A stretch of 32,000 nucleotides of DNA, taken from the NCBI RefSeq assembly GCF_017876815.1, contig NZ_JAGIOS010000002.1, positions 660,001 through 692,000 on the forward strand, read 5' to 3'. The stretch comes from Sinorhizobium meliloti. Its GTDB lineage: Bacteria > Pseudomonadota > Alphaproteobacteria > Rhizobiales > Rhizobiaceae. Position 1 is the stretch's first letter. Each line of letters begins with the position of its first letter. The notes under the pieces were generated by a model. It made no database searches. It was not told where the DNA came from and saw only the letters and a list, made by a program, of their open reading frames with translations. The position numbers and the translations under genes were made by a program. This document shows positions 10,991 to 25,287 of the stretch, one piece after another.

Positions 10991-11101
10991 CCCCTCATCC
11001 CGCTGCCGCGACCTTCTCCCCGTTTCGACGGGGAGAAGGGACAAGCCGCAGACCCTTAAGTCCCCTCTCCCCGCATGCGGGGAGAGGGCTAGGGTGAGGG
11101 G
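10991..11101. repeat. Palindrome-rich intergenic mosaic element (RIME/MITE-like), copy 2; likely bidirectional terminator between convergent genes
   Basis: CCCCTCATCCCGCTGCCGCGA leads into hairpin CCTTCTCCCCG-TTTCGA-CGGGGAGAAGG (11012-11039). The perfect palindrome CCCTCTCCCCGCATGCGGGGAGAGGG follows at 11063-11088. It ends in GGGTGAGGGG, an imperfect inverse of the left end. Confidence 0.75.
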
Positions 11102-11123: not shown

Positions 11124-12842
11124 TCAACCCGCCGCAGCTTCCCTCAAAAACGCACCCGCGACCCGTGCCACCAGCGCCAGCGAGACCGCACCCGCATCCG
11201 GGTGGCCGATGCTCTTTTCGGCCAGCGGCCGCGCCCGGCCGAGTTTCGGGGTCAGCGCGGAGGTCGCATCGGCGGCCTCTTGTGCGGCCTTGGCCGCCGC
11301 GTTCCAGGCTTCCACAAGCGGCCTGCCGGCGGCGGATTCCCTTTCCAGCGTCGCCACGAAGGGCACCAGCGCGTCGACCAGCGTCTTGTCGCCCACCCGC
11401 GCGCGGCCGAGGCGCGTGACGCCGTCGAGTGCGAGGCGGGAGCCCTTCACGATCGCCGCGTCGCTCACCTTATCCTCATCGCTGAGGGCATTGCTCCAGG
11501 AGCGCAGAGCCAGGCCCCAGATGGCGCCCGAGGTGCCGCCGGCGCGGTCCGCCCAGGCGTCGCCCGCGGCAGCAAGTACGCTTGCAGCCCCTGCCCCCGC
11601 CACGACCGCGGTCTGTGCTGCGTCGAATGCGGCGGCAGAACCGCGGCGCATGCCCTGGCCGTGATCGCCGTCGCCGGCAAAGGCGTCGATGCGGCCGAGC
11701 TCCTCTTCCGCCTCCTTGAGCGCCTCGGCAATATTGCCGATCAGCCGGGCGATGCATTTGCCGCTTTCCTTCGAGGCGTCCGATGCAGGGCCGAAAGACT
11801 GCGGTCCGTCGGCGTCTACGATCTCGTCGGTCGCCGGTTCGGCGGCAATGATCACGCCCTTGCGCAGCACCGGCGCATCCGTGGGCGCGCGCCAGAGCGC
11901 CTCCAGCTCTTCGTCCAGCCAGAGAAGGGTGAGCGAGCAGCCCTGCATGTCGAGGCTGGTGACGAATTCGCCGCATTCGGGGTCGACGATTTCAAGACCC
12001 GCGTCATTGAGCTGTCTGGCGACCGCCGTCCAGAGCACGAAGAGTTCTTCATATTTGGTCGAGCCGAGGCCGTTCAGCACGGCGGCCACCTTCCTGGAGC
12101 CCTCGGGGCGCTCGGCAAGAAGCTTGCCGGTAAGGAGCTTTGCGAGATCGCTCGCCGTCGCGATCGTCTCCTCGCTGACGCCCGGTTCGCCGTGAATGCC
12201 GAGCCCGAGCGCCATCTGGCCCTTCGGCACGGTGAAGAGCGGGCCGGCAGCACCCGGAAGCGTGCAGCCGCCGAAGGCGACGCCGAAGGATACCGTCCGA
12301 TCATTGGCATGACGCGCGAGCCGTTCGACCTCGTCGAGCGACTTGCCGGCTTCGGCTGCCGCGCCGGCAATCTTGAAGACGACGAGGTCGCCGGCAATCC
12401 CGCGGCGCTTGGCAGACGTTTCCGCGGGCGCACTCGCCACGTCGTCGGTCACCGGCAGGATGCGCACGTCGATGCCTTCGGAGCGAAGCCGTTCGGCAGC
12501 AACCCCGAAATTCAGGACGTCGCCGGCGTAATTGCCGAAGCCGAGAAGCACTCCGCCGCCCTGGTCGGCATGGCGGCAGACGCGGGCTACCGCGGCAGTC
12601 GAGGGCGAGGCAAAGACATCGCCGGCGACCGCCGCGTCGGCGAGCCCCGGCCCGACATAACCGGCAAAGGCCGGGTAATGTCCCGAGCCGCCGCCGACCA
12701 CGACGGCGACCTTGCCCTTCGGCACCTTGGTCGAGCGCACGACGCCGCCCTTCACCAGGCGGACGTTGCGCTGATAGATCGCTGCGAAACCGGCGAGTGC
12801 GGTCGTGGCGAAATCTTCCGGAGCGTCAAAGATCGTGGTCAT
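11124..12842 (-). CDS. ATP-dependent dihydroxyacetone/triose-tetrulose kinase family protein (fused DhaK-DhaL)
   Basis: 572-aa ORF. N-terminal DhaK domain (VVVGGGSGHYPAFAGYVG) and C-terminal DhaL domain with the nucleotide-binding Asp cluster (DAFAGDGDHGQGM). The single-chain fusion is the ATP-dependent, non-PTS type. Confidence 0.9.
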   Translation of the reverse strand: MTTIFDAPEDFATTALAGFAAIYQRNVRLVKGGVVRSTKVPKGKVAVVVGGGSGHYPAFAGYVGPGLADAAVAGDVFASPSTAAVARVCRHADQGGGVLLGFGNYAGDVLNFGVAAERLRSEGIDVRILPVTDDVASAPAETSAKRRGIAGDLVVFKIAGAAAEAGKSLDEVERLARHANDRTVSFGVAFGGCTLPGAAGPLFTVPKGQMALGLGIHGEPGVSEETIATASDLAKLLTGKLLAERPEGSRKVAAVLNGLGSTKYEELFVLWTAVARQLNDAGLEIVDPECGEFVTSLDMQGCSLTLLWLDEELEALWRAPTDAPVLRKGVIIAAEPATDEIVDADGPQSFGPASDASKESGKCIARLIGNIAEALKEAEEELGRIDAFAGDGDHGQGMRRGSAAAFDAAQTAVVAGAGAASVLAAAGDAWADRAGGTSGAIWGLALRSWSNALSDEDKVSDAAIVKGSRLALDGVTRLGRARVGDKTLVDALVPFVATLERESAAGRPLVEAWNAAAKAAQEAADATSALTPKLGRARPLAEKSIGHPDAGAVSLALVARVAGAFLREAAAG

Positions 12843-12858
12843 CGCTTCAATGTCCCCT

Positions 12859-13800
12859 TCAATGTCCTTCTTGTCGAGGCAGGATACGCCTCAGATAGTC
12901 GCGATTGGCGGCGCTGACGGAAAGGCCGTCACCGCCGTAATGCTCGCAGAGGAAGGGACTGTCGAAGCCATGCGCCAGCGCCATGCGAATTGCCGCCCGA
13001 TAGTTGATCAGGCCGAATTCGAGCGGGGCCGGATGGGTGACGATGACGCCCGATGCCGGATCTTCCGTGCGGTTGTAGTTCTTGACGTGCCAGTATTTGG
13101 CAAAAGGCGCAACCTTCGCCATCATTTCCTGCCAATGTTCCACGGGCCGGTGCAGGCGGATGAGATTGCCGAGATCGGCATTGATGCCGACATTGGCGAG
13201 GCCGACCTCCTTAACGAAGCGCACGGAACTGTCAGCCGTGCCCAGATAGGTGTCCTCGTACATCTCCAGCGAAACTTCGATGCCGAGTTCTTCGGCATGG
13301 CGGCCGAGTTCGCGAACACGCGAAACCGCCAACTGCCAGGTTCCCGCGTCGTCGGGGTTCTTCACGCCGTCGACCGTCCAGAACCAGAGCACTTTCTTCT
13401 GCGCCTCCGTCAGCGGGCCGAAGAAGCCGAAGGACACGGAACCGGCGCCTACGGCGGCGGCCGCCTCGATGACCCGGTGTCCATAGGCGAGGTATTCCTC
13501 GCCATGTTCCGGGTCTATGAGGCTGCGCCGCGAGGTGGAGATCGCCGGTATCGTGAGGCCGAGAGACCGGGTCAGACCCACGAATTCATCGAGCCTTTCC
13601 GCCGAAAGATCCGCCAGCCGTATCCAGCTGTCAGTCGGGTCCAGTTCCGTGAAGCCGGCATCGACCACGTCGGCGAGCGTCGCCGCCCACTCCTCGACCG
13701 TCTGGTCCTGCACCGATCGGCCGTCCGGCAGAAGGTTGGGGTACTGGATCATCGCGGCCGCAATCGGCCAGTTGTCACGGTTCCATTTGCGCGGCGCCAT
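12859..13800 (-). CDS. Sugar phosphate isomerase/epimerase (xylose-isomerase-like TIM barrel)
   Basis: 313-aa ORF with GAGGAG RBS. It shows the spaced acidic/His metal-ligand pattern typical of the family (EVSLEMYED, GINADLGNL, YWHVKNY, FLCEHYG). The assignment is at family level only. Confidence 0.75.
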   Translation of the reverse strand: MAPRKWNRDNWPIAAAMIQYPNLLPDGRSVQDQTVEEWAATLADVVDAGFTELDPTDSWIRLADLSAERLDEFVGLTRSLGLTIPAISTSRRSLIDPEHGEEYLAYGHRVIEAAAAVGAGSVSFGFFGPLTEAQKKVLWFWTVDGVKNPDDAGTWQLAVSRVRELGRHAEELGIEVSLEMYEDTYLGTADSSVRFVKEVGLANVGINADLGNLIRLHRPVEHWQEMMAKVAPFAKYWHVKNYNRTEDPASGVIVTHPAPLEFGLINYRAAIRMALAHGFDSPFLCEHYGGDGLSVSAANRDYLRRILPRQEGH

Positions 13801-13853
13801 GGCGGACTCCTCGGGATTGAATTGGAACTAGGGGTACCGGACGAGGCAGCCGG

Positions 13854-15392
13854 TCAGGCCGCCGCGTTGCCGTCGCCGCTCGAAGCGGCAACCTCGTTCT
13901 TGCGCTTGCGCAATGTGCCGATCAGCCAGAAGAAGAGCGGCGACAGAAGCAGCGCAAGGGCGACGGCCATCAGGGCGGAGACAAGGCCGTTCGACCAGAA
14001 GATGTCGAGGCTGCCGCCCGACATCAGCATCGACTGGCGGAAGGCGTCTTCCGCCTTGTCGCCGAGCACCATGGCGAGAACCAGCGGCGCCAGCGGGTAG
14101 TCGAGCTTCTTGAACACATAGCCGAGGAGACCGAAGCCGATCACCATGAAGATGTCCGAGACGGAGTTCGCGACCTGGTAGGCCCCCGAGAAGATCACCG
14201 CGACGATGATCGGTCCGATGATCGAGAACGGCACGCGCAGGATCGAGGCGTAAAGCGGCACCGTCGCGATCACGAGGAAGACGGCGACGACATTGCCGAG
14301 ATACATGGAGGCGATCAGACCCCAGACGAAGTCCGGGCGATCGGTGAAGAGCATCGGGCCGGGCGTCAGGCCCCAGATCATCAACCCGCCCATCATCACC
14401 GCGGCGGTGGCGGAACCCGGGACGCCGAGCGCCAGCATCGGCAGCAGGGCCGATGTGCCGGCGGAATGGTCGGCCGTCTCCGGCGCGACGATGCCGCGCG
14501 GATCGCCCTTGCCGAACATCGACTTGTCGCGCGCCGAGCGCCGGGCGACGCCATAGCTCATGAAGGAGGCGGCGGTCGGGCCGGCCGGCGTGATCCCCAT
14601 CCAGATGCCGATGATCGTCGAGCGGGCGATCGTCAGCCAGTAGCGCGGGATCTCGATCAGCGTCCTGCCGATCTCGGAGAGACGCACCCGAGCCTTGATG
14701 CCTTCGAAGCGCAGCCCCTCTTCCGTCGTCAGCAGGAGTTCGCCGATGCCGAAGAGTCCCATGACGGCAATCAGGAAGCTCACGCCCTTGATCAGTTCGG
14801 GAATGTCGAAGGTGAGCCTCAGATTGCCGGATATCGTATCCATGCCGATCGAGGCGAGCGCAAAGCCGAGCATCATCGAGACGAGCGTCTTGAAGGGCGA
14901 CTGCGCGCCCATCGAGATGAAGCTCGCAAAGGCGAGGAAGTAGACGGCGAAATATTCGGGCGAGGAGAATTTGAGTGCAAAGTTCGCCACCCAGCCCGAA
15001 AGCAGCGTGATCATGACGACGCCGGCAAGCGCGCCGAGGCCGGCCGAAACGAAGGCGAGCGTGAGCGCCCGGCTCGCATGGCCGGCTCTCGCCATGGGAT
15101 AGCCGTCGAATGTCGTGGCGACCGAGGAGGGCTCGCCCGGAATGTTGAAGAGGATCGACGTGGTCGAGCCGCCGAAAAGCGCGCCCCAATACATGCAGGA
15201 CAGGAGGATGATCGCCGAGATCGGGTCCATGGAGAAGGTCAGCGGCAGGAGCAGCGACACACCGTTCGGCGCACCGAGGCCCGGCAGCACGCCGACGAGG
15301 ATGCCGAGCGTCACGCCGACGATCATCAGCAGGATGTGGTTCCAGCTGAGGATGTGGCCGAAGCCATCGATCAGAAGACCGATATTTTCCAT
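13854..15392 (-). CDS. tctA: Tripartite tricarboxylate transporter (TTT) large permease TctA
   Basis: 512-aa polytopic membrane protein with GGAGGA RBS. TctA-family sequence throughout (GVLPGLGAPNGVSLLLP, PGEPSSVATTFDGYPMA), downstream of tctC and tctB. Confidence 0.92.
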   Translation of the reverse strand: MENIGLLIDGFGHILSWNHILLMIVGVTLGILVGVLPGLGAPNGVSLLLPLTFSMDPISAIILLSCMYWGALFGGSTTSILFNIPGEPSSVATTFDGYPMARAGHASRALTLAFVSAGLGALAGVVMITLLSGWVANFALKFSSPEYFAVYFLAFASFISMGAQSPFKTLVSMMLGFALASIGMDTISGNLRLTFDIPELIKGVSFLIAVMGLFGIGELLLTTEEGLRFEGIKARVRLSEIGRTLIEIPRYWLTIARSTIIGIWMGITPAGPTAASFMSYGVARRSARDKSMFGKGDPRGIVAPETADHSAGTSALLPMLALGVPGSATAAVMMGGLMIWGLTPGPMLFTDRPDFVWGLIASMYLGNVVAVFLVIATVPLYASILRVPFSIIGPIIVAVIFSGAYQVANSVSDIFMVIGFGLLGYVFKKLDYPLAPLVLAMVLGDKAEDAFRQSMLMSGGSLDIFWSNGLVSALMAVALALLLSPLFFWLIGTLRKRKNEVAASSGDGNAAA

Positions 15393-15426
15393 GTCATTCC
15401 TCCCGCAAGCACTGCACCCTTGCGGG

Positions 15427-15927
15427 TCAGTAGATTCCGAACCAGGCCTCGACCGGTCCCTTCAGCAGCGGAACCTGGAAGCCGATTTCGAAAACGATGA
15501 AAAAGAAGATCGAGACCCCGAGTCCTGCGGGGATCGCGATCCACCATTTGTAGCGCCCCTGGAAGAGCATCGTCGCGGCGATGTAGAGCGCCGTTCCGAC
15601 ATAGAGCCCCAGCCAGGCGGAAACGGCGGCGAAGGCCGCAACCGGTAGCAGGAAAGAGGCGACCACTCTGGCGCGGGCGCCGTCGAGGAAGACCTCGCCC
15701 GTACCGCGATGCTTGAAAAATGCGTGCCCGATATTGGCGAGGCTGCCGAGAACGATGAGCAGGCCGATATAGAAGGGGAAATAGCCTGCATCCGGACCCA
15801 TATCTGTCCAGCCCGCACCGATGTCGAGGGAGCCGTAGCAGACAGCGATGCCGAAGGCACCGGTCAGCGCGGCGACGCCGAGTTCCACCGCAAAACGGCT
15901 GACCCCATTCGCACTTTTCTCACTCAT
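15427..15927 (-). CDS. tctB: TTT small membrane subunit TctB
   Basis: Four hydrophobic segments, about 166 aa from ATG 15927 behind GGAAAGG. The track ORF start at 16014 would add a 29-aa non-hydrophobic extension. Confidence 0.8.
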   Translation of the reverse strand: MSEKSANGVSRFAVELGVAALTGAFGIAVCYGSLDIGAGWTDMGPDAGYFPFYIGLLIVLGSLANIGHAFFKHRGTGEVFLDGARARVVASFLLPVAAFAAVSAWLGLYVGTALYIAATMLFQGRYKWWIAIPAGLGVSIFFFIVFEIGFQVPLLKGPVEAWFGIY

Positions 15928-16032
15928 GATCGTGACCTTTCCGAGCAGAGAATGGGCGTTCGAGAGGCCGAGGATGGATGCGGTTCTGCCCGCATCCTCT
16001 TCCCTGGGTCCCAAGCGCCCATCGACCGGTAC

Positions 16033-17019
16033 TTAGTTGGCGAGCCAGCCTTCGCGCTTCAGCACTTCGCCGACCGTCGCGCCATCCTTTTCGATGACGG
16101 CTTTGAGTTCGTCGCCGGTCACATAGCCGGGAGACTGCGAGCTGTCGGCGAGATATTTCGCCCATTCCGGCGTCTCGGAAACCTTGCGCAGGACATCCGC
16201 ATAGAACTGGACGACCTCAGGTTCGACGCCGGCCGGCAGCCAGACGGTGCGCGGCATCGAGTAGTTTTCGATCGGAATGCCGGCTTCCTTGCAGGTCGGG
16301 ATATCGCTCCAGGCCTTGTCGCCGGCGACCTTGGCGTCGCTCGTGAACTTCGCGCTCTTGAAGACGCAGAGTGGCTTGATCATGCCGGCCTGCCATTGAC
16401 CGAGGTTCTCGCTCGGATTGTTGACATTGGCGTCGAGGTGCTCGCCGGCAAGCTGAACGGCCGCCTCGCCGCCGCTCTTGAAGGGGATGTAGTTGATCTT
16501 GGCGCCGGTTGCGTCGTTGATCATCGAGGTCAGGATCTGGTCGGCGTCCTTGGACTGGCTGCCGCCGATCTTCAGGCCGCCTTCCTTCGCCTTGGCCACG
16601 AAATCGGCAGCCGTCGCGTAGTCCGCCTTGCCATTGACCCAAAGCACGAACTCGTCGGACGCGAGCGAGGCGACCGGCGTCAGGTCCTCGGACGTATAGG
16701 GCACCTTGGCGCGGACCGGCAGCAGGTAGGCATTGTTGGTGCCGAAGGCGAGCTTGTAGGGATCGCCCTTGTAGCCAGCCGTGTAGACGAAGCCTTCCGC
16801 GCCGCCGGCGCTGCCCTTGTTGGTGACGACGACCGGTGCCTTCATCAGCTCGTACTTGCCGATGATCGCCTGGATGGTGCGCGCGAAGATATCGGTACCG
16901 CCGCCGGGGCCGGCGGTGACGACGAATTCGACCGGGCGGTTCGGCTCGAAGGCCGATGCCGGCGCGGCAAGGCCGAAAGCGGCGGCCGCGATTACTGCGA
17001 TGGAGACGGATTTTTTCAT
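16033..17019 (-). CDS. tctC: TTT periplasmic substrate-binding protein TctC (Bug family)
   Basis: ATG 17019 behind GGGAGGA gives the signal peptide MKKSVSIAVIAAAAFGLAAPASA. The mature part is Bug/TctC-like (PVEFVVTAGPGGGTDIFAR). The track start at 17079 precedes the RBS. Confidence 0.9.
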   Translation of the reverse strand: MKKSVSIAVIAAAAFGLAAPASAFEPNRPVEFVVTAGPGGGTDIFARTIQAIIGKYELMKAPVVVTNKGSAGGAEGFVYTAGYKGDPYKLAFGTNNAYLLPVRAKVPYTSEDLTPVASLASDEFVLWVNGKADYATAADFVAKAKEGGLKIGGSQSKDADQILTSMINDATGAKINYIPFKSGGEAAVQLAGEHLDANVNNPSENLGQWQAGMIKPLCVFKSAKFTSDAKVAGDKAWSDIPTCKEAGIPIENYSMPRTVWLPAGVEPEVVQFYADVLRKVSETPEWAKYLADSSQSPGYVTGDELKAVIEKDGATVGEVLKREGWLAN

Positions 17020-17094
17020 GCGTGGTCCTCCCGTTGAGTTGGATTGCGGCGCGAGACCTCCCCTCACGCCGGTATTCATCGAAAGCGTGCGAAT

Positions 17095-18141
17095 TCAGGC
17101 AGCAGCCGAAAGCGCCCTCTTTTTCTTCGCCATGCGGGCTGCAAGCAGGATCGCCTCGCGTGTTGCGCCTATATCGGCGATACCCTTGCCGGCGATGTCG
17201 TAGGCGGTGCCGTGGGCGGGCGTGCAGAGCGGGAACGGCAGTCCGCCCATCATCGTCACACCCTTGTCGAAGCCGATGATCTTCATGGCGATCTGACCCT
17301 GATCGTGATACATGGTCATCACCGCGTTGAAGCCTTCCTTCAGCGCCCGGAGGAAGACCGTATCGGCCGGGAACGGCCCCTCGACATTAAAGCCGAGCGC
17401 CCTGGCCTTCTCGACCGCCGGCTCGATGATGTCGATCTCTTCCATGCCGAAGCTGCCGCCGTCGCCGGCATGCGGATTGAGTCCCGCAACTGCGATCTTC
17501 GCCTCCTCGTAGCCGGCATCCTTGAGGCAGGCCTGCGTCAGTTTGAGTTCGGCAAGGATCGCGTCCACCGACAGGTGGGATGCCACGTCCTTGAGCGGGA
17601 TATGCGACGTCACCCGCGCGTTCCACACCTTTTCGAGAACATTGAATTCACGAACTTTTCCGGTGAAGGAAAGCACGTCGGCGACGAAGCGGATCTCGTC
17701 GTCATAGCCGGGATAGGCAAAGCGCATCGCCTTCTTGTTGAAGGGCGTGAAGCAGACGGCATCGGCCTTGCCCGCATGGGCGAGTTCGAGCGCGGTGCGG
17801 AAATTGCGTGTGGCGAAGGTGCCGCCGGCCAGCGTCGCCTCGCCGCGCACCACATCGGCCGGATCGAGATGGGCGAGATCCACGAAGACGTGGCGGGCGG
17901 TGCCGGCGTTGTCGAGCGCGTCGAGCGAAGCGGCTTCCAGATCCAGCGTGACGCCGGCCACCCGGGCGCCCTCGTCGAGGATGCGGCGATCGCCGATGGC
18001 GATGATGTGCGCCGCGTCGCGGATGTCGGAAAGGGCCAGCAGCCGCGCCGTCAGTTCCGGGCTGATTCCCGCGGGGTCGCCCATGGCCAGCGCAATCACA
18101 GGGCGCCGCTCCTTCGTTCCGTCCGCTCCTGATGTCGTCAT
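17095..18141 (-). CDS. PdxA-family NAD(P)-dependent beta-hydroxyacid dehydrogenase/decarboxylase (PdxA2-like)
   Basis: ATG 18141 is 8 nt behind GGAGGA. PdxA hallmarks: IALAMGDPAGISPEL, GLNPHAGDGG, TPAHGTAYDIAGKGIAD. It is the first gene of the minus-strand operon. Confidence 0.88.
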   Translation of the reverse strand: MTTSGADGTKERRPVIALAMGDPAGISPELTARLLALSDIRDAAHIIAIGDRRILDEGARVAGVTLDLEAASLDALDNAGTARHVFVDLAHLDPADVVRGEATLAGGTFATRNFRTALELAHAGKADAVCFTPFNKKAMRFAYPGYDDEIRFVADVLSFTGKVREFNVLEKVWNARVTSHIPLKDVASHLSVDAILAELKLTQACLKDAGYEEAKIAVAGLNPHAGDGGSFGMEEIDIIEPAVEKARALGFNVEGPFPADTVFLRALKEGFNAVMTMYHDQGQIAMKIIGFDKGVTMMGGLPFPLCTPAHGTAYDIAGKGIADIGATREAILLAARMAKKKRALSAAA

Positions 18142-18188: not shown

Positions 18189-18222
18189 AATTCTGCATCA
18201 AGTCTTTTGCATTCTGTATGCA
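18189..18222. promoter_or_regulatory. Repeated ATTCTG(C/T)AT motifs and a TGCAT-N5-ATGCA inverted repeat; candidate GntR operator in a divergent promoter region
   Basis: ATTCTGCAT (18190-18198) and ATTCTGTAT (18211-18219) lie 21 bp apart. TGCATTCTGTATGCA (18208-18222) is an inverted repeat. A TTGACG -35-like hexamer sits at 18233-18238. The site lies between the PdxA-like operon and the GntR gene. Confidence 0.3.
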
Positions 18223-18338: not shown

Positions 18339-19025
18339 ATGAACGAAATCAAATCACTGGAGCAGCGGCCCATAGGCGGCCCGGGACCCATCCGGCGCAC
18401 CGCACTGCACGACACGCTGGTCAGCCATCTGCGCGACATGATCATCGAGGGCGACCTTCCGCCAGGAACCCGTCTGCACGAGGGGCAACTGGGCGAGCAG
18501 CTCGGCGTATCGCGCACGCCGCTGCGCGAGGCGATCAAGTATCTTGCGAGCGAAGGCCTGGTGGAGCTCGTCCCGAGCCGCGGCGCCGTCGTCAAGCGCT
18601 TCAGCGCCAAGGACGTCCGGGACATGCTCACCGTGCTGCAGACCCTGGAGGAGCTCGCAGGCAGGCTTGCCTGCGAGACCGCGACGGATGCGGAGATCGC
18701 CGAAGTGCGGGCGCTCCACGACGAAATGGTGCGCCGCTACGAGGCGGGCGACCGGATGCAATATTACAAGCTCAACCAGGACATCCACTCCGCCATCGCC
18801 CGGCTTTCGGGCAATGCTGCCCTGGCCGACATGCATGCCATGCTGCAGACGCGGCTGAAGCGCATCCGCTTCATCGGCCATGAAGGCCCGGAGAAATGGG
18901 CCGCAGCGGTCGCCGAACATCAGGAAATGATCGCCGCTCTGGAAGCGCGCGACAAAGCCAGGCTATCGGAAGTGCTGGGGCTTCATCTGACGAGGGCCTG
19001 GGAGCGGGTGCGCGACGCGGTTTAG
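18339..19025 (+). CDS. GntR-family transcriptional regulator, FadR/FCD subfamily
   Basis: 228 aa. wHTH (GEQLGVSRTPLREAIKYLASEGLVELVPSRGAVV) followed by an all-helical FCD-type domain with conserved His residues. Divergent from the PdxA-like/TTT operon. Confidence 0.88.
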   Translation: MNEIKSLEQRPIGGPGPIRRTALHDTLVSHLRDMIIEGDLPPGTRLHEGQLGEQLGVSRTPLREAIKYLASEGLVELVPSRGAVVKRFSAKDVRDMLTVLQTLEELAGRLACETATDAEIAEVRALHDEMVRRYEAGDRMQYYKLNQDIHSAIARLSGNAALADMHAMLQTRLKRIRFIGHEGPEKWAAAVAEHQEMIAALEARDKARLSEVLGLHLTRAWERVRDAV

Positions 19026-19089: not shown

Positions 19090-19635
19090 TCACTTCACCG
19101 CCAGCAGACAGATATAGGAAAGCACCGTTACGAGCAGCCCGTGGAAGGCGAAGCTGACGCAGCGGTATTTGCCGCAGGCGATCGCCGCGAGCGCGTCTGC
19201 GTTCTCGGCGTATTGACGGAAGAGAAAGTCCTGATCGCCGGCCCCCGCTGCCCGCATGAAACCTTCCCGATGACGGGACCAGGCGCCCCAGAACAGCGTC
19301 GTCGAGGTTGCGCTCTTCCTGGGCAGGACCACGAGGATCGCCGAAACGATCGAGAAGATCGATGCAAGCGCCAGCATAGCCGAGAATACCATCGTGACGG
19401 TGCTGCCCTCCGCATAGCGCTGCCAGGCAAAGACGCTCCGCCCTTCTTGCGAAGTGACCAGAAAGGCGAACATGAAAGTGAAGATATAAGCCGCCTTCTG
19501 ATCGGACGTCTTTATCTGATCGGCAAAGACGTCGTTGATCTTCCTGATGTGGTCGTAATAGGCCCCCAGCGCCGCATCCGGCCCGGCTCCTTCACTTGGA
19601 GGATCGAGCCTGTACAGATTTCCCCCTGATTCCAT
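19090..19635 (-). CDS. Small three-TM membrane protein of unknown function; layout reminiscent of Pycsar TM effectors (DUF5706/PycTM-like)
   Basis: ATG 19635 lies 6 nt behind GGGGAG (181 aa); the track start at 19698 is upstream of the RBS. A soluble N-terminus is followed by AAYIFTFMFAFLVTS, TVTMVFSAMLALASIFSIVSAILVVL and VSFAFHGLLVTVLSYICLLAV. GC content is clearly lower than in the neighbours. The family assignment is from memory only. Confidence 0.6.
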   Translation of the reverse strand: MESGGNLYRLDPPSEGAGPDAALGAYYDHIRKINDVFADQIKTSDQKAAYIFTFMFAFLVTSQEGRSVFAWQRYAEGSTVTMVFSAMLALASIFSIVSAILVVLPRKSATSTTLFWGAWSRHREGFMRAAGAGDQDFLFRQYAENADALAAIACGKYRCVSFAFHGLLVTVLSYICLLAVK

Positions 19636-19765
19636 CCGCCACTCCCCTCTATTTCGTCTCCTCTTTATTACACTCCACCAGTAAAGAGATACGCCCAAAA
19701 CTGGGCTCTTGACTTTTCCTCCCTATAAATCCACTGGATTCACTATAGCGAGGGGTATTTCGGGA

Positions 19766-22700
19766 ATGCGGGGAAGAAGAACGGGGGCATTGCTTGCCGC
19801 GGTGACGCTTTTTGCGCCCTTGTGGGCGCTTGCCGAGCCGGTTCCGCGCCCGTCACCCGCGGCCGGCTCCGTCATTGCCCGCAAATCCGGCGAGGAGGTG
19901 CGCTTCGTCGACGTTTCCAACTGGCGGGTCGTCGACCTCGCCCAGGACCTGCTTCCCGGCGACGTGCTGCGCACCAACGCAAGGGGCGCGCTGGCCGTCC
20001 TCTTCAGAGATCACACGCAGATAAGGCTGGGGCGCAATACCGCGCTGCGCGTCAAGCAGATCGGGGCGGGCGACACGAATCTCGGGCTGGAATCGGGTAC
20101 GATCTGGGCCCGCGCCGAGCGTGGCGGCGAGGGCCTGGTCATCGATACGCCGGCCGCAGCCGCCGCCATCCGCGGTACCGACTGGACGCTGACGGTCGGC
20201 GCCGACGGAAAGACTTCGCTCGTCGTCCTCGAAGGCGTCGTCGAACTCAGCAATGCCTATGGCAGCGTGACGGTGAAGCAGGGCGAAGGCGCCGTTGCCG
20301 CGATCGGCAGCGCGCCGGCGAAGATCGTGATCGTTACGCCGAAGGACCGCGAGCAGATGCTCTTTCATCTGTCGCTCCGCAATGCCTTCGTCTGGATGCC
20401 GGCCACGCCCTTCAGCGTTCCCGAGATGCGCCGCGAGCGTGCGCGCATCGAGGCCTCGCCGGCAGCATCCCGCCCGGCCGAGGAATGGCTGACGCTTGCC
20501 GAGATTTATCTTTCCCTGAATGGCCGCGACAAGGCTCAGGCCGCGCTCGCGGAAGCCGCGAGCCGGGGCCTGACCCGCTCCCAGGCGGCACGTGCCGACC
20601 TCGTCAAGGCATTGATCGCCGGTTCTTCGAACCGCTACGAAGAGGCGGCGCGTCTGTTCGCCAGGGCCGAACGCGGCCTCGACCCGAGCCGCCGTACGAT
20701 CGCGGCCTATGGCGGCTATTTTGCGCGCGGGCTCGCCGATCCTGCCCGCGTGGAGGAGCCGCCGCGCAACGCAAGCGGCCGCTATGCGGGCATGGCCCGG
20801 GCCTGGACTGCCGGCTTCCGGGAAGACATCCCCGCGGCGATCGCGGTGATCAAGAAGGCCGAGCAGCAATATCCCGACGACCCGACCCTGCCCGCGGCAC
20901 GCGCGCAGCTCGCCCTCCTGCTGGATGACCGCGACGAGCTTCGCGACGGTGTCGAGCGGGCGCTATCGATCGATCCAGACGACCCGACTGCGCTCGAGGC
21001 GCGCGCCCACTACCGCTATCACATCGACAACGATCTCGAGGGCGCCCTTGCTGATCTCGAAAGGGCGCTGAAAACCGCTCCGGGCTCCTCCTCCATCTGG
21101 AATTCCCTCGGACTGGTCCAGGGCGCGCGCGGCGACAACCGTGCCGCCGAGGCTGCCTTCAAGCAGGCGATTGCGCTCGATCCGCTCGATCCCGTCTCCC
21201 ACGCAAACCTCGCAATACAATACATGGACGAGATGCGGATGGCCGAGGCGAAGCGGGAGATCGACGCCGCGCTTTCCGTCGATCCCTCCTTCGACGTGGC
21301 GCTGGTGGCACGCGGCCGCTATCACATGCAGAACGGCGAGGCCGACAAGGCGGTCGAAGACCTGCTCGCCGGCTCGACGGCCAATCCGGCCTACTCGAAC
21401 GCACAGCTCCTGCTCGCGGCCGCGCATTACGAGAAGGGCGACCGCATTCCGGCAGCTCAGGCGCTCGACAATGCCGACAGGCTCGACCCGAACGATCCCG
21501 TCGTCGCGACGGTCAGAACCGCGATCGCGATCGACGCCTACGACGCCGACGCGGCCATTCGCAACGCTCAGGAAGCCCTGCGCCGCACCCGCGCCAAGGG
21601 CGGCGACACGGCGGCACTCGGCGCCAACCAGGAACAAGGATCGACGCTCAACGACGCCTTCCGCCTGCAGGGTTTGGATGCCTGGGGCCAATATTACGGC
21701 GACGCCGTCTTCGATCCCTTCACCGGTGCCAGCTATGTCGACCAGGCGGTCCGCGGCAGCGTCAATCCCTTCTTCAACGCCTACGATTTCGCCGCCAACG
21801 CCGTCACGAACACGGTCAATACCACGAGCTTTTCCGCTCTCATCCAGGGGCTTCTGATCGAACCGCATATGCTCGCCAGCCGCGAGCGAACGGTCAACCT
21901 GCTGCGTTCGCCCTTTTTCGAGACGGAGCTCGGCGGCGGGTTCATCGCCAATGACGATCATACCGGATGGGTCGGGGAAGCGGCCGTTCGCGGATTTACC
22001 GTCTCGCCGTTCCCGATCAGCGTCTACGGGACGTTCCAGTGGGAGGAGCCGAAGGATGTGGTCGATCTCGGAGGCGCCCGAGTGGAACGAGAGCTGCGGA
22101 TAATCGGAGGCAACGGCTACGTTACGGCCAGTCCGACGCCCGATGACCGCATTGTAGTCTTCGCGAACTATTCCGATATCGAGGAGACACAGCAATTTCT
22201 GCCTGTTCCGCCTGACCTTGAGATAGGGGACGAGTCTTCCGGCCTCATTTCCGGGCTCGCATGGAGCCATACATTCGGATACCGCAACGTCGGAAACGCC
22301 GCGTTGTTTTTCAGGGAACTCCGCACCGGTGATAGCCTATCCATTCTGGATGCCAGCGGCGCTGGAGGGACCATCGATCTTGAAACGAAGGAGCGGACCT
22401 ATATCGCTGCAGTGAACCACTTGTATGGAGATGGGGACCTGACGTGGCGCTATGGCGTTGAGGGCGGGAAGGTCCGGTCGGACAGTTCACCGGCCGTCTT
22501 CGACTCGTCCACGCAAGCGGTGGCGAAAGCCTATGTTGATGTCCTCTATGAAATGACCCCGGACCTCAAAGTCGAAGGCGCCCTGTTCGCCCGTTACATA
22601 GAGGACGTCAACGACAACAATATCCGGCTTGAGCCGAGACTCGGGATCGCCTGGGCACCGGCCGAGGGCCATTGGCTGCGCGCCGCCGTTCAGCGCGACG

Positions 22701-23338
22701 GCTATAATTTCGGCTCTGCCACGCTTGCGCCAGTCGGCATCGTCGGACTGCAGCCCAACCAGTTCCTGATCGGCACGGGCGGCTATGCCGACACGCTGGC
22801 CTTGCGCTGGGATGCCGAGTGGAACGACTGGCTCTTTACAGCCGTCGACTACCAGCACCAGGAAATCCGCGACGGTTCAATTGCCATCCCGGTCACCAGC
22901 CCCTTCTTCGCACTGACGGATTTCCCTTTCGACAAGGGCCGCATCGACCGCGTGGCATTAACCGCAAACCTCGCGCTCGGTCACGGATTCGGCCTATCGG
23001 CGACGATGGCCCGCACGGAAAGCGAGGACCGGTCGGCAGGCGCCGGCGGCGATCTGCCCTTCCTGCCGGAATATTCGGGCCAAGTGGCACTCACCTTTGT
23101 CAGCACAGCCAACATCAAAACGACCGTCGCCGCCAACTACGTAGGCGAGCGAGCGGAGGGTTCGATAACCCACGACGACTTCTGGACGGTCGACGCCGCT
23201 CTCCAATGGGAGCCCTTCGACAAGCGGTTCGAAGTCGAACTCGCCGGCTTCAACCTTCTGGACGAGGAGTTCGAGGTGCGCGACGGGCTGCCCGGCTGGG
23301 GTCCCACGGTCAAGGGCACCGTCAAAGTGCGGTTCTGA
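19766..23338 (+). CDS. nsrA: Large secreted FecR-domain / TPR-repeat / C-terminal beta-barrel outer-membrane protein (NsrA-like signal receptor)
   Basis: ATG 19766 gives the signal peptide MRGRRTGALLAAVTLFAPLWALA. FecR-like beta-sandwich at about 19900-20300 (LLPGDVLRTNARGALAVLFRDHTQIRLGRNT...IRGTDW). TPR-like helical repeats at about 20480-21600. The amphipathic beta-strand-rich C-terminus ends in VKVRF, an OMP-type terminal Phe. From memory, the position upstream of a CHASE2 cyclase matches S. meliloti nsrA-cyaK. Confidence 0.8.
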   Translation: MRGRRTGALLAAVTLFAPLWALAEPVPRPSPAAGSVIARKSGEEVRFVDVSNWRVVDLAQDLLPGDVLRTNARGALAVLFRDHTQIRLGRNTALRVKQIGAGDTNLGLESGTIWARAERGGEGLVIDTPAAAAAIRGTDWTLTVGADGKTSLVVLEGVVELSNAYGSVTVKQGEGAVAAIGSAPAKIVIVTPKDREQMLFHLSLRNAFVWMPATPFSVPEMRRERARIEASPAASRPAEEWLTLAEIYLSLNGRDKAQAALAEAASRGLTRSQAARADLVKALIAGSSNRYEEAARLFARAERGLDPSRRTIAAYGGYFARGLADPARVEEPPRNASGRYAGMARAWTAGFREDIPAAIAVIKKAEQQYPDDPTLPAARAQLALLLDDRDELRDGVERALSIDPDDPTALEARAHYRYHIDNDLEGALADLERALKTAPGSSSIWNSLGLVQGARGDNRAAEAAFKQAIALDPLDPVSHANLAIQYMDEMRMAEAKREIDAALSVDPSFDVALVARGRYHMQNGEADKAVEDLLAGSTANPAYSNAQLLLAAAHYEKGDRIPAAQALDNADRLDPNDPVVATVRTAIAIDAYDADAAIRNAQEALRRTRAKGGDTAALGANQEQGSTLNDAFRLQGLDAWGQYYGDAVFDPFTGASYVDQAVRGSVNPFFNAYDFAANAVTNTVNTTSFSALIQGLLIEPHMLASRERTVNLLRSPFFETELGGGFIANDDHTGWVGEAAVRGFTVSPFPISVYGTFQWEEPKDVVDLGGARVERELRIIGGNGYVTASPTPDDRIVVFANYSDIEETQQFLPVPPDLEIGDESSGLISGLAWSHTFGYRNVGNAALFFRELRTGDSLSILDASGAGGTIDLETKERTYIAAVNHLYGDGDLTWRYGVEGGKVRSDSSPAVFDSSTQAVAKAYVDVLYEMTPDLKVEGALFARYIEDVNDNNIRLEPRLGIAWAPAEGHWLRAAVQRDGYNFGSATLAPVGIVGLQPNQFLIGTGGYADTLALRWDAEWNDWLFTAVDYQHQEIRDGSIAIPVTSPFFALTDFPFDKGRIDRVALTANLALGHGFGLSATMARTESEDRSAGAGGDLPFLPEYSGQVALTFVSTANIKTTVAANYVGERAEGSITHDDFWTVDAALQWEPFDKRFEVELAGFNLLDEEFEVRDGLPGWGPTVKGTVKVRF

Positions 23339-25287
23339 TGAACGACTTTCGCGAGCTTCGCCTTTCCTCCCGGCGGGTAAAGCTTGCCGCGCTGACGGCC
23401 TTCGTGGCCGCCCTCGTCTCGGCTGTCTCGCTGACCGGTACGTGGTCGCTGGTGGACCTGCGCGCCTATGACTATCTCTCGATCGTCGGCCGGCCAACGC
23501 TACCGGAAGACGGCCCCGTTATCGTCGCGATTGACGAACCGTCTATGGCCGAGATCGGCAGCCAGTGGCCTTGGCCGCGCGCCCTGCACGCCCGGCTGAT
23601 CCAGGCGCTGAGAGTCGCCGGCGCCAGGGCGATCGCACTCGACGTGATCTTCGCCGAACCGGCCGCCGCGCCGGAGAACGATCAGGCGCTTGCCGAAGTC
23701 CTCGGGTCCGATGTGGTGCTTGCCGGCGACGAGACGCTGATCCGGACACCGCAGGCAGAGCAGTTCGTCCGGACCGAGCCTCTTCCCGTCTTTCTGGAGC
23801 GGGGCGCCAAGGTGGGCATCGCCTCGGTCGACCTCAGCGGCGACGGCACGCTCAGGCAGATTCCCTCCTATCCAGACGGCTTGGCCGTGACGCTCGCAAC
23901 CGTCGCCGGTGCAAAACCTGCCCATCCGCCGAGACGAGCCCTGATGCAGACCTTCGGCCCGGCGCGCACCTACCCGACCGTTTCCTACTATCAGGCGCTC
24001 GACCCCGAAAGTTTCCTTCCGGAAGAAACGTTCCGCGGTCGGGTCGTCATCGTGGGCCTGAGCCTGCAGAACGCCCCGACCATCTCGGGCGGCGGCATCG
24101 ATGCCTTCGCCACCTCCGACACGGTCTTTTCCCGCGGTCTCGTCGCCGGCGCCGAGATCCACGCGACCATCTACGACAATCTCGTGCACCGGCTGTTCGT
24201 CAAGCGGGCGGGAGCGGCGGTCGCCGTCACCGCGATCGTCCTCGCCAGCCTTGCCGCAGCCCTTGCCGTCCTCGGGTCGACAAGCTGGAAGACGCTCGGA
24301 TACGGCGCCCTCGCCCTTATTCTGATCTTTCTTGCAAGCTACGGCCTGATGCGCCTCGCCCATGTGTTCGTCTCGCCGCTCGCACCGGCACTTGCTTTTC
24401 TCGGCGTGGCAGTCGGGCAGGCCGGCCTCGACTATGCGGAAGAAAGGCGACGACGACGCGCGATCACCCGTGCCTTCTCGCAGTATCTCTCGCCCGCGCT
24501 CGTCGAGCGGCTGGCGAGAGACCCCTCGCAATTGAAGCTCGGCGGCGAAAGACGGACGCTGACGGTACTCTTCTGCGACGTTCGCGGCTTCACCACCATA
24601 TCGGAGGACATGAAGGACGATCCGGAGGGGCTGACGACGCTCATCAACCGGCTCCTGACCCCTCTTTCGGAGGCGGTGCTCAACCGGCGCGGCACGATCG
24701 ACAAATATATCGGCGACTGCCTGATGGCATTCTGGAACGCGCCGCTCGACGATCCGGACCATGCCGTCCATGCCGTTCAGGCGGCGCGCGACATGCTCAC
24801 CGCCCTCGGCGATCTCAACGCGGAGCTGGAAGCCGAGGCGAAAGCGGCGGGACGTCCGCCGAAGACGCTGAGGATCGGCATCGGCATCAACACGGGCGAA
24901 TGCGTCGTCGGCAATATGGGCTCGGCCCGCCGCTTCGATTATTCGGCACTGGGCGACGCGGTCAATCTCGCCTCCCGCCTCGAAGGTGCCTCCAAGGACT
25001 ACGGCGTGCCGCTGCTCCTCGGCGAGCGTACGGCAACACTTGCCGCCCGGAAATTTGCGGTTGCCGAGCTCGACCGCATCACCGTCAAGGGACGCAGCGC
25101 GGTCTCCCCCGTCTTCACCCTGGCCGACGGCGCTTCGGAACCGGCGCTCGAACGCCACCGCGCCTACCTCGCCCGGAAATACAGCGGCGAGATCGCTGCC
25201 GATGACGGCTTGTTCGATGAACTCAAGGCGGCGCTGCCGCCGCTCGCGCGCTATTACGAGCGTGAGCGGGAACGGCTGCTGAAATAG
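23338..25287 (+). CDS. cyaK: Receptor-type class III adenylate cyclase with periplasmic CHASE2 domain (CyaK-like)
   Basis: ATG 23338 overlaps the nsrA stop (TGATG). N-terminal TM helix, CHASE2-like region (about 23440-24200), three TM helices, then the cyclase domain (about 24550-25120). Metal-binding Asp residues are in FCDVRGF and IGDCLMA. Substrate-determining residues are Lys456 (24703-24705) and Asp534 (24937-24939). Asn543 and Arg547 sit in VNLASR. The track ORF from 22819 is a run-in over nsrA. Confidence 0.9.
   Translation: MNDFRELRLSSRRVKLAALTAFVAALVSAVSLTGTWSLVDLRAYDYLSIVGRPTLPEDGPVIVAIDEPSMAEIGSQWPWPRALHARLIQALRVAGARAIALDVIFAEPAAAPENDQALAEVLGSDVVLAGDETLIRTPQAEQFVRTEPLPVFLERGAKVGIASVDLSGDGTLRQIPSYPDGLAVTLATVAGAKPAHPPRRALMQTFGPARTYPTVSYYQALDPESFLPEETFRGRVVIVGLSLQNAPTISGGGIDAFATSDTVFSRGLVAGAEIHATIYDNLVHRLFVKRAGAAVAVTAIVLASLAAALAVLGSTSWKTLGYGALALILIFLASYGLMRLAHVFVSPLAPALAFLGVAVGQAGLDYAEERRRRRAITRAFSQYLSPALVERLARDPSQLKLGGERRTLTVLFCDVRGFTTISEDMKDDPEGLTTLINRLLTPLSEAVLNRRGTIDKYIGDCLMAFWNAPLDDPDHAVHAVQAARDMLTALGDLNAELEAEAKAAGRPPKTLRIGIGINTGECVVGNMGSARRFDYSALGDAVNLASRLEGASKDYGVPLLLGERTATLAARKFAVAELDRITVKGRSAVSPVFTLADGASEPALERHRAYLARKYSGEIAADDGLFDELKAALPPLARYYERERERLLK

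Follow-up and report, generated by a model that had tools for sequence, protein, structure and literature searches.

A conserved pSymB operon of Sinorhizobium meliloti with a PdxA-family enzyme of altered phosphate site, a possible route for scavenging a branched breakdown product of vitamin C

INTRODUCTION

Which acid sugar, and by what chemistry, would a bacterium consume with a PdxA-like dehydrogenase, a carboxylate importer, a TIM-barrel protein, and a Dak-type kinase encoded side by side? The question is raised by a six-gene operon with a divergent regulator (Table 1) in the alfalfa symbiont Sinorhizobium meliloti, within a stretch of 32,000 nucleotides (contig NZ_JAGIOS010000002.1 of assembly GCF_017876815.1, forward-strand positions 660,001 to 692,000) that we call the window. 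An original prediction for this DNA had the PdxA-like enzyme (here PdxA*) convert an unphosphorylated linear tetronate or pentonate to a ketose, which the kinase would phosphorylate and the TIM barrel would then adjust. Our analysis keeps part of that logic and relocates the rest. We regard it as very probable that the route adds no phosphate until its end and that the isomerase works before the kinase. The same architecture with a named substrate is put forward more tentatively, at just short of an even chance: GntR-controlled scavenging of an unphosphorylated branched sugar dicarboxylate, 2-carboxy-L-threo-pentonate (CPA, the same compound as 2-carboxy-L-lyxonate).

RESULTS

A conserved gene set

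We found 80 species-level loci with a PdxA* protein, 69 of them with enough flanking sequence to read the gene context. A tripartite tricarboxylate transporter (TTT) accompanied PdxA* in 67/69 loci, and both the TIM barrel and the Dak kinase were present in 53/69. The six-gene operon is conserved across rhizobia, while in Aureimonas, Neorhizobium, and Paracoccus the gene order is shuffled with the same gene set retained. Taken with the counts, the persistence of the set despite reshuffling indicates a functional unit rather than a chance grouping. An orthologue of the GntR regulator lies at nearly all loci.

A PdxA-family enzyme with an altered phosphate site

The predicted model of PdxA* (predicted local distance difference test score, 90.7) has the PdxA fold, with a Z score of 37.8 and a root mean square deviation of 3.1 over 327 residues against PDB 6E85, and the top matches in both sequence and fold are PdxA2 structures. 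The metal residues His180, His224, and His279 and the catalytic Lys287 are invariant among homologues. PdxA* nonetheless missed the cut-offs of all PdxA/PdxA2 NCBIfam models (TIGR00557, 255 versus 290; PRK03371, the D-threonate 4-phosphate dehydrogenase model, 198 versus 583), and Asp148-Glu149 occupy the place of the phosphate-binding His-Thr pair. Acidic residues replace His-Thr in 45/45 sampled clade members, with the Asn and Arg ligands changed to Thr and hydrophobic residues; the two S. meliloti paralogues, PdxA and PdxA2, retain all these ligands. The roles of the His-Thr, Asn, and Arg residues in PdxA are those in the Escherichia coli structure. This replacement throughout the clade supports the original proposal that the enzyme would act on an unphosphorylated substrate.

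The structural matches could also be taken to mean that PdxA* resembles PdxA2 in function and handles an acid sugar already phosphorylated by a kinase from elsewhere, and DUF1537 kinases are indeed encoded elsewhere in the genome. We consider this very improbable: the scores lie far under the cut-offs, the phosphate pocket is acidic with its Asn and Arg ligands gone, and a PdxA2 of the His-Thr type, adjoining a DUF1537-like gene, is encoded elsewhere in the genome. Assignment of PdxA* as PdxA2 itself is contradicted by the missed models, by the Asp-Glu at the phosphate site, and by its position as sister to PdxA proteins of ascorbate/lyxonate clusters. With that separate PdxA2/DUF1537-like pair and a denD-otnC-ltnD-otnI-otnK cluster elsewhere, the genome provides for the known tetronate routes without this operon. 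As originally noted, the operon has no DUF1537 kinase, and a Pfam scan found none in the window either. A region-specific PDB search aimed at the TphB pocket gave zero matches.

A TIM barrel that probably acts before the kinase

The sole close structure for the TIM barrel (PF01261) is Mycobacterium smegmatis 5TNV (E = 5e-95), which we take to be OrnI. Ketose epimerase structures match at E = 1e-6, and the protein fell below the cut-off of the ketose 3-epimerase (psicose/tagatose type) model NF051856 (34.6 versus 300 bits). It is 54% identical to a protein (L245) from an actinobacterial ribonate-type cluster that itself matches only 5TNV; the cluster also holds Dak, RpiB, 3HCDH-type and short-chain dehydrogenases, and a triose-phosphate isomerase (TPI)-like gene. 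This make-up matches the D-ribonate route Rib2D-OrnI-decarboxylation-DerK (PMC13753588). A Glu-Asp-His-Glu metal site (motifs of Glu179, Asp209, His238, and Glu286) is present in 36/37 homologues.

Homologues at 63 to 75% identity come after the D-erythronate 2-dehydrogenase DenD (scoring above cut-off), and one is a DenD fusion followed by Dak. In the TIM-barrel tree, PdxA*-linked and DenD-linked copies interleave. PdxA* would therefore be interchangeable with makers of 2-oxo-aldonates, which suggests a place for the TIM barrel ahead of the kinase. The TIM barrel of Paracoccus TOH shares an operon with OtnK and OtnC, without OtnI, as would be expected of an isomerase. It belongs with the OrnI-type oxo-aldonate isomerases, an activity predicted from the DenD adjacency and fusion. 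The adjustment of a ketose phosphate after the kinase, which had been its proposed task, does not fit homologues that are fed by, or fused to, aldonate 2-dehydrogenases.

Two other identities fit less well. OiaC/OiaX, the 3-oxo-isoapionate decarboxylases, are a less likely assignment: compared with TIM barrels encoded next to ApnO in sampled loci of rhizobia, the TIM barrel gave no match in 20 ApnO regions (pairwise E = 0.03), and the context favors OrnI. Orthology to OtnI was rejected at a pairwise E of 0.15.

Two loci show other arrangements around this family. The DenD-TIM fusion (L239:8001-12745, protein P0121) is followed by a 330-residue protein without a Pfam match, Dak, an amidohydrolase, and a short-chain dehydrogenase/reductase (SDR). 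At L147:1682-9761, a TTT system, a 2-hydroxyacid dehydrogenase, a beta-propeller (32% identical to a DkgM-like protein), and a TIM homologue stand with an FGGY kinase that takes the place of Dak, perhaps in a variant route for a substrate with one more carbon.

A putative erythrulose kinase and candidate downstream isomerases

The Dak fusion passed PRK14479 (757 versus a cut-off of 492 bits), missed the glycerone kinase equivalog TIGR02361 (392 versus 575 bits), and shares 57% identity with the Dak protein of the actinobacterial ribonate-type cluster, whose gene stands with RpiB and TPI-like genes. By this context it would be a LerK/DerK-like erythrulose kinase. The idea of a kinase acting last, on a ketose, holds in the architecture of an acid-sugar route.

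The products of such kinases are handled by the TPI-like LerI (also TpiB or EryH) and by DerI (also RpiB or EryI). Genes for TPI-like/LerI and DerI proteins are co-operonic or divergent at loci L005, L042/L114, L145, and L162; in Ensifer LCM 4579, tpiB and rpiB come directly after dak, in Neorhizobium and two metagenomic PdxA* loci they lie at the side of the cluster, and in S. meliloti they are chromosomal. A TpiB/LerI gene was found in 46/47 genomes with PdxA*, TIM barrel, and Dak and in 9/19 PdxA* genomes without the TIM barrel (background, 68/201 family members and 51/81 in one genus), counts inflated by kinship and by the common use of erythritol in rhizobia, so that the contrast is suggestive, not a test, and this tells against our reading. 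The steps after the kinase are most likely carried out by TpiB and RpiB, not by the TIM barrel. The TpiB/LerI link favors an erythrulose phosphate, which would derive from a C5 oxo acid and so from a substrate of six carbons, and from LerI we infer the L-form of erythrulose, matching the stereochemistry of ascorbate.

In Ensifer sp. LCM 4579 (L005:15271-18302), tpiB-rpiB start two bases after the kinase stop and are followed by rhomboid and PilZ-like genes. The S. meliloti genome also carries a phosphotransferase system-type DhaKL pair (C2:1085-1090 kb) and, at C2:1129788 (L210, L267), an ApnO-family oxidoisomerase with an ATP-binding cassette (ABC) transporter and apiose-pathway-like genes.

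A possible link to ascorbate breakdown

The nearest other PdxA clade, which is ClxD-like, shares 46 to 50% identity with PdxA* and has the same changed motifs; DE, E-x-N, R-x-x-S-H, and TPAHG are common to PdxA* and the PdxA proteins of ascorbate/lyxonate clusters. In a tree that did not include the Ralstonia eutropha ClxD sequence, PdxA* formed its own clade (95/95), sister to or beside the ClxD-like rows (89/68). The ClxD-like genes adjoin genes for an enolase-family dehydratase, a DHDPS-family (KDP-dehydratase-like) dehydratase, and an aldehyde dehydrogenase. Gluconolactonase, beta-propeller, and amidohydrolase genes are also present at one locus, and cytochrome b561 at another. Together these correspond to the genes of the ascorbate route of R. 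eutropha H16, in which the PdxA-family ClxD reportedly decarboxylates unphosphorylated 2-carboxy-L-lyxonate (Stack et al. 2020). The nearest relatives of PdxA* being in ascorbate/lyxonate clusters points to a branched 2-carboxy-aldonate and away from the originally proposed conversion of a linear tetronate or pentonate to a ketose by PdxA alone.

The clades also share partners. The GntR regulator of the PdxA* operon is 55.6% identical to that of a Paracoccus albus lyxonate-type operon, where a perfect operator site is present, compared with about 31% for the genome's own paralogues. A tripartite ATP-independent periplasmic (TRAP) transporter binding protein is common to both clades at 50 to 61% identity, as is a pair of a major facilitator superfamily (MFS) transporter and a lactonase (59% and 49%, Caballeronia). 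That the clades have a sensor and importers in common suggests that their substrates are identical or closely alike.

CPA and its lactones arise without enzymes from ascorbate, via 2,3-diketogulonate, under apoplast-like conditions (PMC11066805, PMC6225978). The biological role of this type of plant apoplast metabolite has been called unclear, and the existence of the R. eutropha ascorbate route is cited, in PMC11066805. A TTT importer is suited by a diacid such as CPA. L-Idonate/5-ketogluconate genes adjoin one Paracoccus locus and L-threonate genes adjoin several, both ascorbate-linked. Lyxonate dehydratase was found in 0/69 PdxA* loci, its best match in the S. meliloti genome being 33% identical. 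Another compound, 2-carboxy-L-threonolactone, was considered as an ascorbate product and rejected: it was not found in the literature searched, and the substance concerned is now assigned as 2-oxo-L-threo-pentonate.

Among the ClxD-like clusters, many (L171, L200, L201, L202, L204, L206, L275, and L276 among them) have the lyxonate-type dehydratase but lack both b561 and the propeller mutase, a pattern that suggests that the nonenzymic product is widely scavenged, in place of full use of ascorbate. The cluster at L140:2868-12009 has two lactonases (58% and 48% identical to the ClxL-like and PdxA*-linked ones, respectively), a DenD-like dehydrogenase, a TIM barrel, and several TRAP genes without PdxA, a possible route for lactone decay products.

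Proposed pathway and alternatives

In the pathway that we propose, TctABC would import the diacid CPA and PdxA* would oxidize C3 with NAD+ and remove one carboxyl, releasing, unlike ClxD, 2- or 3-oxo-L-pentonate without re-reduction. The OrnI-type TIM barrel would shift the carbonyl to C3, and the 3-oxo acid would lose CO2, spontaneously or on the TIM barrel, to give L-erythrulose. Dak would convert this to L-erythrulose 1-phosphate, from which the chromosomal TpiB (LerI/EryH) and RpiB (DerI/EryI) would make D-erythrose 4-phosphate. The net yield from C6 would be C4, two CO2, and NADH, feeding the pentose phosphate pathway. We infer every step from context, around genes, families, a lost phosphate site, and gene neighborhoods that can be read directly from the sequence.

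A first alternative concerns what PdxA* releases. In a ClxD-like mode it would use NAD+ catalytically and release L-lyxonate or L-xylonate, and a SAF/DXR-II-like oxidoreductase, DenD, or ApnO elsewhere would make the oxo acid. Most PdxA* clusters outside Sinorhizobium do contain a second oxidoreductase (SAF/DRL in 20/69, DenD in Nitratireductor, beta-hydroxyacid dehydrogenases in others), the S. meliloti genome has two DenD copies and one ApnO, and L-lyxonate is oxidized by ApnO in vitro (PMC13753588). We rate this mode as quite unlikely. An operon omitting its own middle step would be less economical, and neither DenD nor the SAF oxidoreductase was found in 11/40 genomes bearing the six-gene operon (the search covered these two enzymes and not LtnD or ApnO, and a draft assembly can lack a gene), so that PdxA* may be the sole oxidant and release the oxo acid itself.

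The second alternative shortens the substrate by one carbon or takes another branched diacid. PdxA* would decarboxylate a dicarboxylate of five carbons, such as 2-carboxy-tetronate, hydroxymethyl-tartrate, or a pentarate, to an oxo-tetronate, the TIM barrel would produce 3-oxo-tetronate, this would lose CO2 to give dihydroxyacetone (DHA), and Dak would yield dihydroxyacetone phosphate (DHAP), with relatives using OtnI/OtnK/OtnC instead. OtnK, OtnI, LtnD, and OtnC, all above cut-off, adjoin PdxA* in Phyllobacterium and Rhizobium; Paracoccus TOH and Aureimonas AU4 have otnK-otnC within the PdxA* unit; among alternative partners of the TIM barrel, DenD occurs most often; no LerI was found in 10/19 PdxA* genomes lacking the TIM barrel; and 3-oxo-L-threonate can give DHA for a DhaK (PMC12994016). 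Set against these, LerI/DerI genes, needless for a DHAP route, are physically tied to TIM barrel, Dak, and PdxA* in several lineages; a natural source of 2-carboxy-tetronate was not found in the literature searched; and the otn genes are often under a LacI regulator of their own and may share only an ascorbate origin. L-Threonate is itself an ascorbate product, and a shared source has been argued for other clusters (PMC12994016), so that otn adjacency may reflect this common origin. On balance we judge the C5 substrate unlikely.

The third is the originally predicted route, in which PdxA* takes a linear tetronate or pentonate to DHA or erythrulose and the phosphorylated product is adjusted by the TIM barrel, or else a variant with PdxA* as a plain aldonate dehydrogenase without decarboxylation. 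Either would agree with the lost phosphate site and with the interchange of PdxA* and DenD upstream of TIM barrel and Dak, and the chemistry is simple, with a precedent in Ltn3D (PMC12994016). Both appear improbable, for they leave the TIM barrel jobless or with a job foreign to its homologues and do not explain the regulator, transporters, and lactonase held in common with lyxonate-dehydratase clusters, in which the linear pentonate is made as a product and is not the starting compound.

The CPA reading with PdxA* as oxidant faces further adverse evidence of its own. The chemistry of ClxD and the identity of 5TNV as OrnI are assumptions of ours, backed by matching gene sets. PdxA* stands in a separate clade, with just 46% identity to ClxD-like proteins, and its substrate may therefore differ from that of ClxD. 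The rearranging beta-propeller and a close lactonase gave zero matches in the S. meliloti genome, so the operon would depend on a nonenzymic supply of CPA. One pair of TIM barrels in the tree, PdxA*-linked and DenD-linked, is identical, but both come from one metagenome assembly. OtnK/OtnC (3-oxo-tetronate kinase/decarboxylase) adjoin 9/69 loci, co-transcribed in two lineages, and fit a C4 product better. The DXR-II-like SAF oxidoreductase occurs in 20/69 loci, including 14/14 TTT loci without TIM barrel and Dak, and its gene directly precedes otnK-otnC in two lineages. These occurrences keep the C4 product and the ClxD-like nonoxidative mode alive as rivals.

The SAF oxidoreductases belong to the DXR-II-like DRL/DLO family, uncharacterized in PMC3847144. 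Members at L064:14241-15659, L166:14210-15607, and L081:2823-4199 are tied to the regulon; such proteins are often misannotated as FlgA or homoserine dehydrogenase.

Comparison with known pathways

The R. eutropha H16 ascorbate route (Stack et al. 2020) resembles this operon in a PdxA-family enzyme (ClxD) without a phosphate site, with the same motifs and in a sister clade, and in the GntR/operator, TRAP, and MFS-lactonase partners common to related clusters. The S. meliloti operon differs in lacking lyxonate dehydratase, KDP dehydratase, the propeller mutase, and b561, in the 46% identity of its PdxA protein, and in its end: an isomerase and a ketose kinase would lead here to the pentose phosphate pathway, whereas the R. 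eutropha route leads to alpha-ketoglutarate.

Among tetronate pathways, Zhang et al. 2016 are said to have described the DtnK-PdxA2 pathway for D-threonate and the LtnD/DenD-OtnI-OtnK-OtnC pathway. The PdxA fold and an oxo-aldonate logic are shared with these, and otn genes adjoin some homologous loci; here, by contrast, the operon has no DUF1537 kinase, the phosphate site is lost, and both known pathways are encoded separately in the genome.

PMC13753588 and PMC12994016 describe, after Luo and Huang 2018, a D-ribonate route of M. smegmatis, Rib2D-OrnI-(decarboxylation)-DerK. The proposed route has the same lower half, with a PF01261 isomerase, then a Dak-family erythrulose kinase, then LerI/DerI. 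Entry would be by PdxA* in place of the 3HCDH- or SDR-type 2-dehydrogenase, the transporter is of the TTT type, and LerI/DerI are usually chromosomal. D-Apionate route 3 of Carter et al. 2018, which PMC13753588 gives as ApnO-OiaC-LerK-EryH-EryI, likewise takes a branched sugar acid to L-erythrulose with Dak phosphorylation and with EryH/EryI often elsewhere; the present cluster has no ApnO, and its TIM barrel showed no similarity to those beside ApnO in the sampled loci of rhizobia. TphB, the terephthalate dihydrodiol dehydrogenase/decarboxylase (PDB 4ATY, 8ZJ7), is another PdxA-family enzyme for an unphosphorylated dicarboxylate, but is 28 to 30% identical to PdxA* and belongs to an aromatic pathway, and no aromatic oxygenase genes were present in the loci inspected.

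Gene layout, regulation, and neighboring genes

The window DNA matches pSymB of S. meliloti at 99 to 100% identity, and the operon is flanked there by phosphonate lyase genes on one side and a FecR/CHASE2 cyclase pair on the other. A check of the open reading frames and Pfam matches bore out the six minus-strand genes and the divergent regulator at their predicted coordinates (Table 1). The gaps within the operon are 75, 105, 34, 53, and 16 bases, and a purine-rich ribosome-binding stretch precedes most of the starts. TctA, TctB, and TctC, all above Pfam cut-off in one unit, make a complete TTT system; the genome's other TctC paralogues are merely 27% identical to this TctC. Promoter and terminator scans of the region performed no better than chance, and Rfam gave zero matches.

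A 15-base near-palindrome upstream of PdxA*, conserved across families, is the likely GntR operator. Its 9-mers were found again in about 50/79 intergenic regions, the motif also occurs at Paracoccus, Nitratireductor, and Neorhizobium loci and at the P. albus lyxonate-type operon, and the site is the sole exact match to the consensus in the 7.3-Mb genome.

Table 1. Coordinates of the operon, its regulator, and the putative operator in the window
Feature	Position	Strand	Family or basis
PdxA*, PdxA-family NAD-dependent beta-decarboxylating dehydrogenase (predicted), ClxD-sister clade, phosphate site replaced	17095..18141	-	PF04166
TctC, TTT solute-binding protein	16033..17019	-	PF03401
TctB, small TTT membrane protein	15427..15927	-	PF07331
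TctA, large TTT permease	13854..15392	-	PF01970
TIM barrel, predicted OrnI-type oxo-aldonate isomerase; may also speed the second decarboxylation	12859..13800	-	PF01261
Fused DhaK-DhaL kinase of the ATP type, likened to erythrulose kinases (LerK/DerK) from its gene context	11124..12842	-	Dak1+Dak2
GntR/FCD regulator, divergent	18339..19025	+	PF00392+PF07729
Putative GntR operator, conserved 15-base near-palindrome	18208..18222	-	Recurring 9-mers, genome-wide consensus match

In strains 1021 and 2011, an apparent insertion of 1.3 kb, flanked by a duplicated 9-base target, lies just 3' of the kinase gene (between positions 11072 and 11080 of the window) and leaves the operon intact. A second PdxA* copy lies at the far end of the cluster at L033:18568-19086 and likewise at L077:11345-12316; this copy is whole in Rhizobium acaciae, whereas that of Rhizobium sp. 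P32RR-XVIII is split in two. Beyond the regulator, window positions 19090-19698 (minus strand) encode a small membrane protein that carries a Pycsar effector domain (PF18967). Divergent to its gene lie those for a FecR-TPR protein and a CHASE2 adenylate/guanylate cyclase (19766-25287). The trio is kept in several Ensifer loci, and the cyclase and Pycsar-like effector stand here outside a defense island.

DISCUSSION

A literature search with the S. meliloti locus tags of the operon genes gave zero matches. In the literature searched we found no description of the union of a ClxD-like upper enzyme with an OrnI-LerK lower funnel, each half of which has a characterized counterpart. The operon is therefore no new class of system but a combination of known enzyme types. 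Its analysis proposes a specific function for seven mis- or underannotated genes of a model symbiont, including a dehydrogenase labeled as the vitamin B6 enzyme PdxA, defines a wide PdxA clade without the phosphate site, and indicates a role for orphan DXR-II-like oxidoreductases.

Tentatively, and with rather less than even confidence, we suggest that S. meliloti and many plant-associated Alphaproteobacteria have a dedicated route for scavenging CPA, as a stable decay product of vitamin C from plants, in which a PdxA-family oxidative decarboxylase feeds an oxo-aldonate isomerase/erythrulose kinase funnel, that GntR and TctC would sense host ascorbate turnover, and that the SAF (DLO) oxidoreductases would gain a first function in the same regulon. 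If this is true, the operon would represent a second bacterial route for the breakdown products of vitamin C, one that ends in the pentose phosphate pathway, and rhizobia would be feeding on a metabolite of the plant apoplast.

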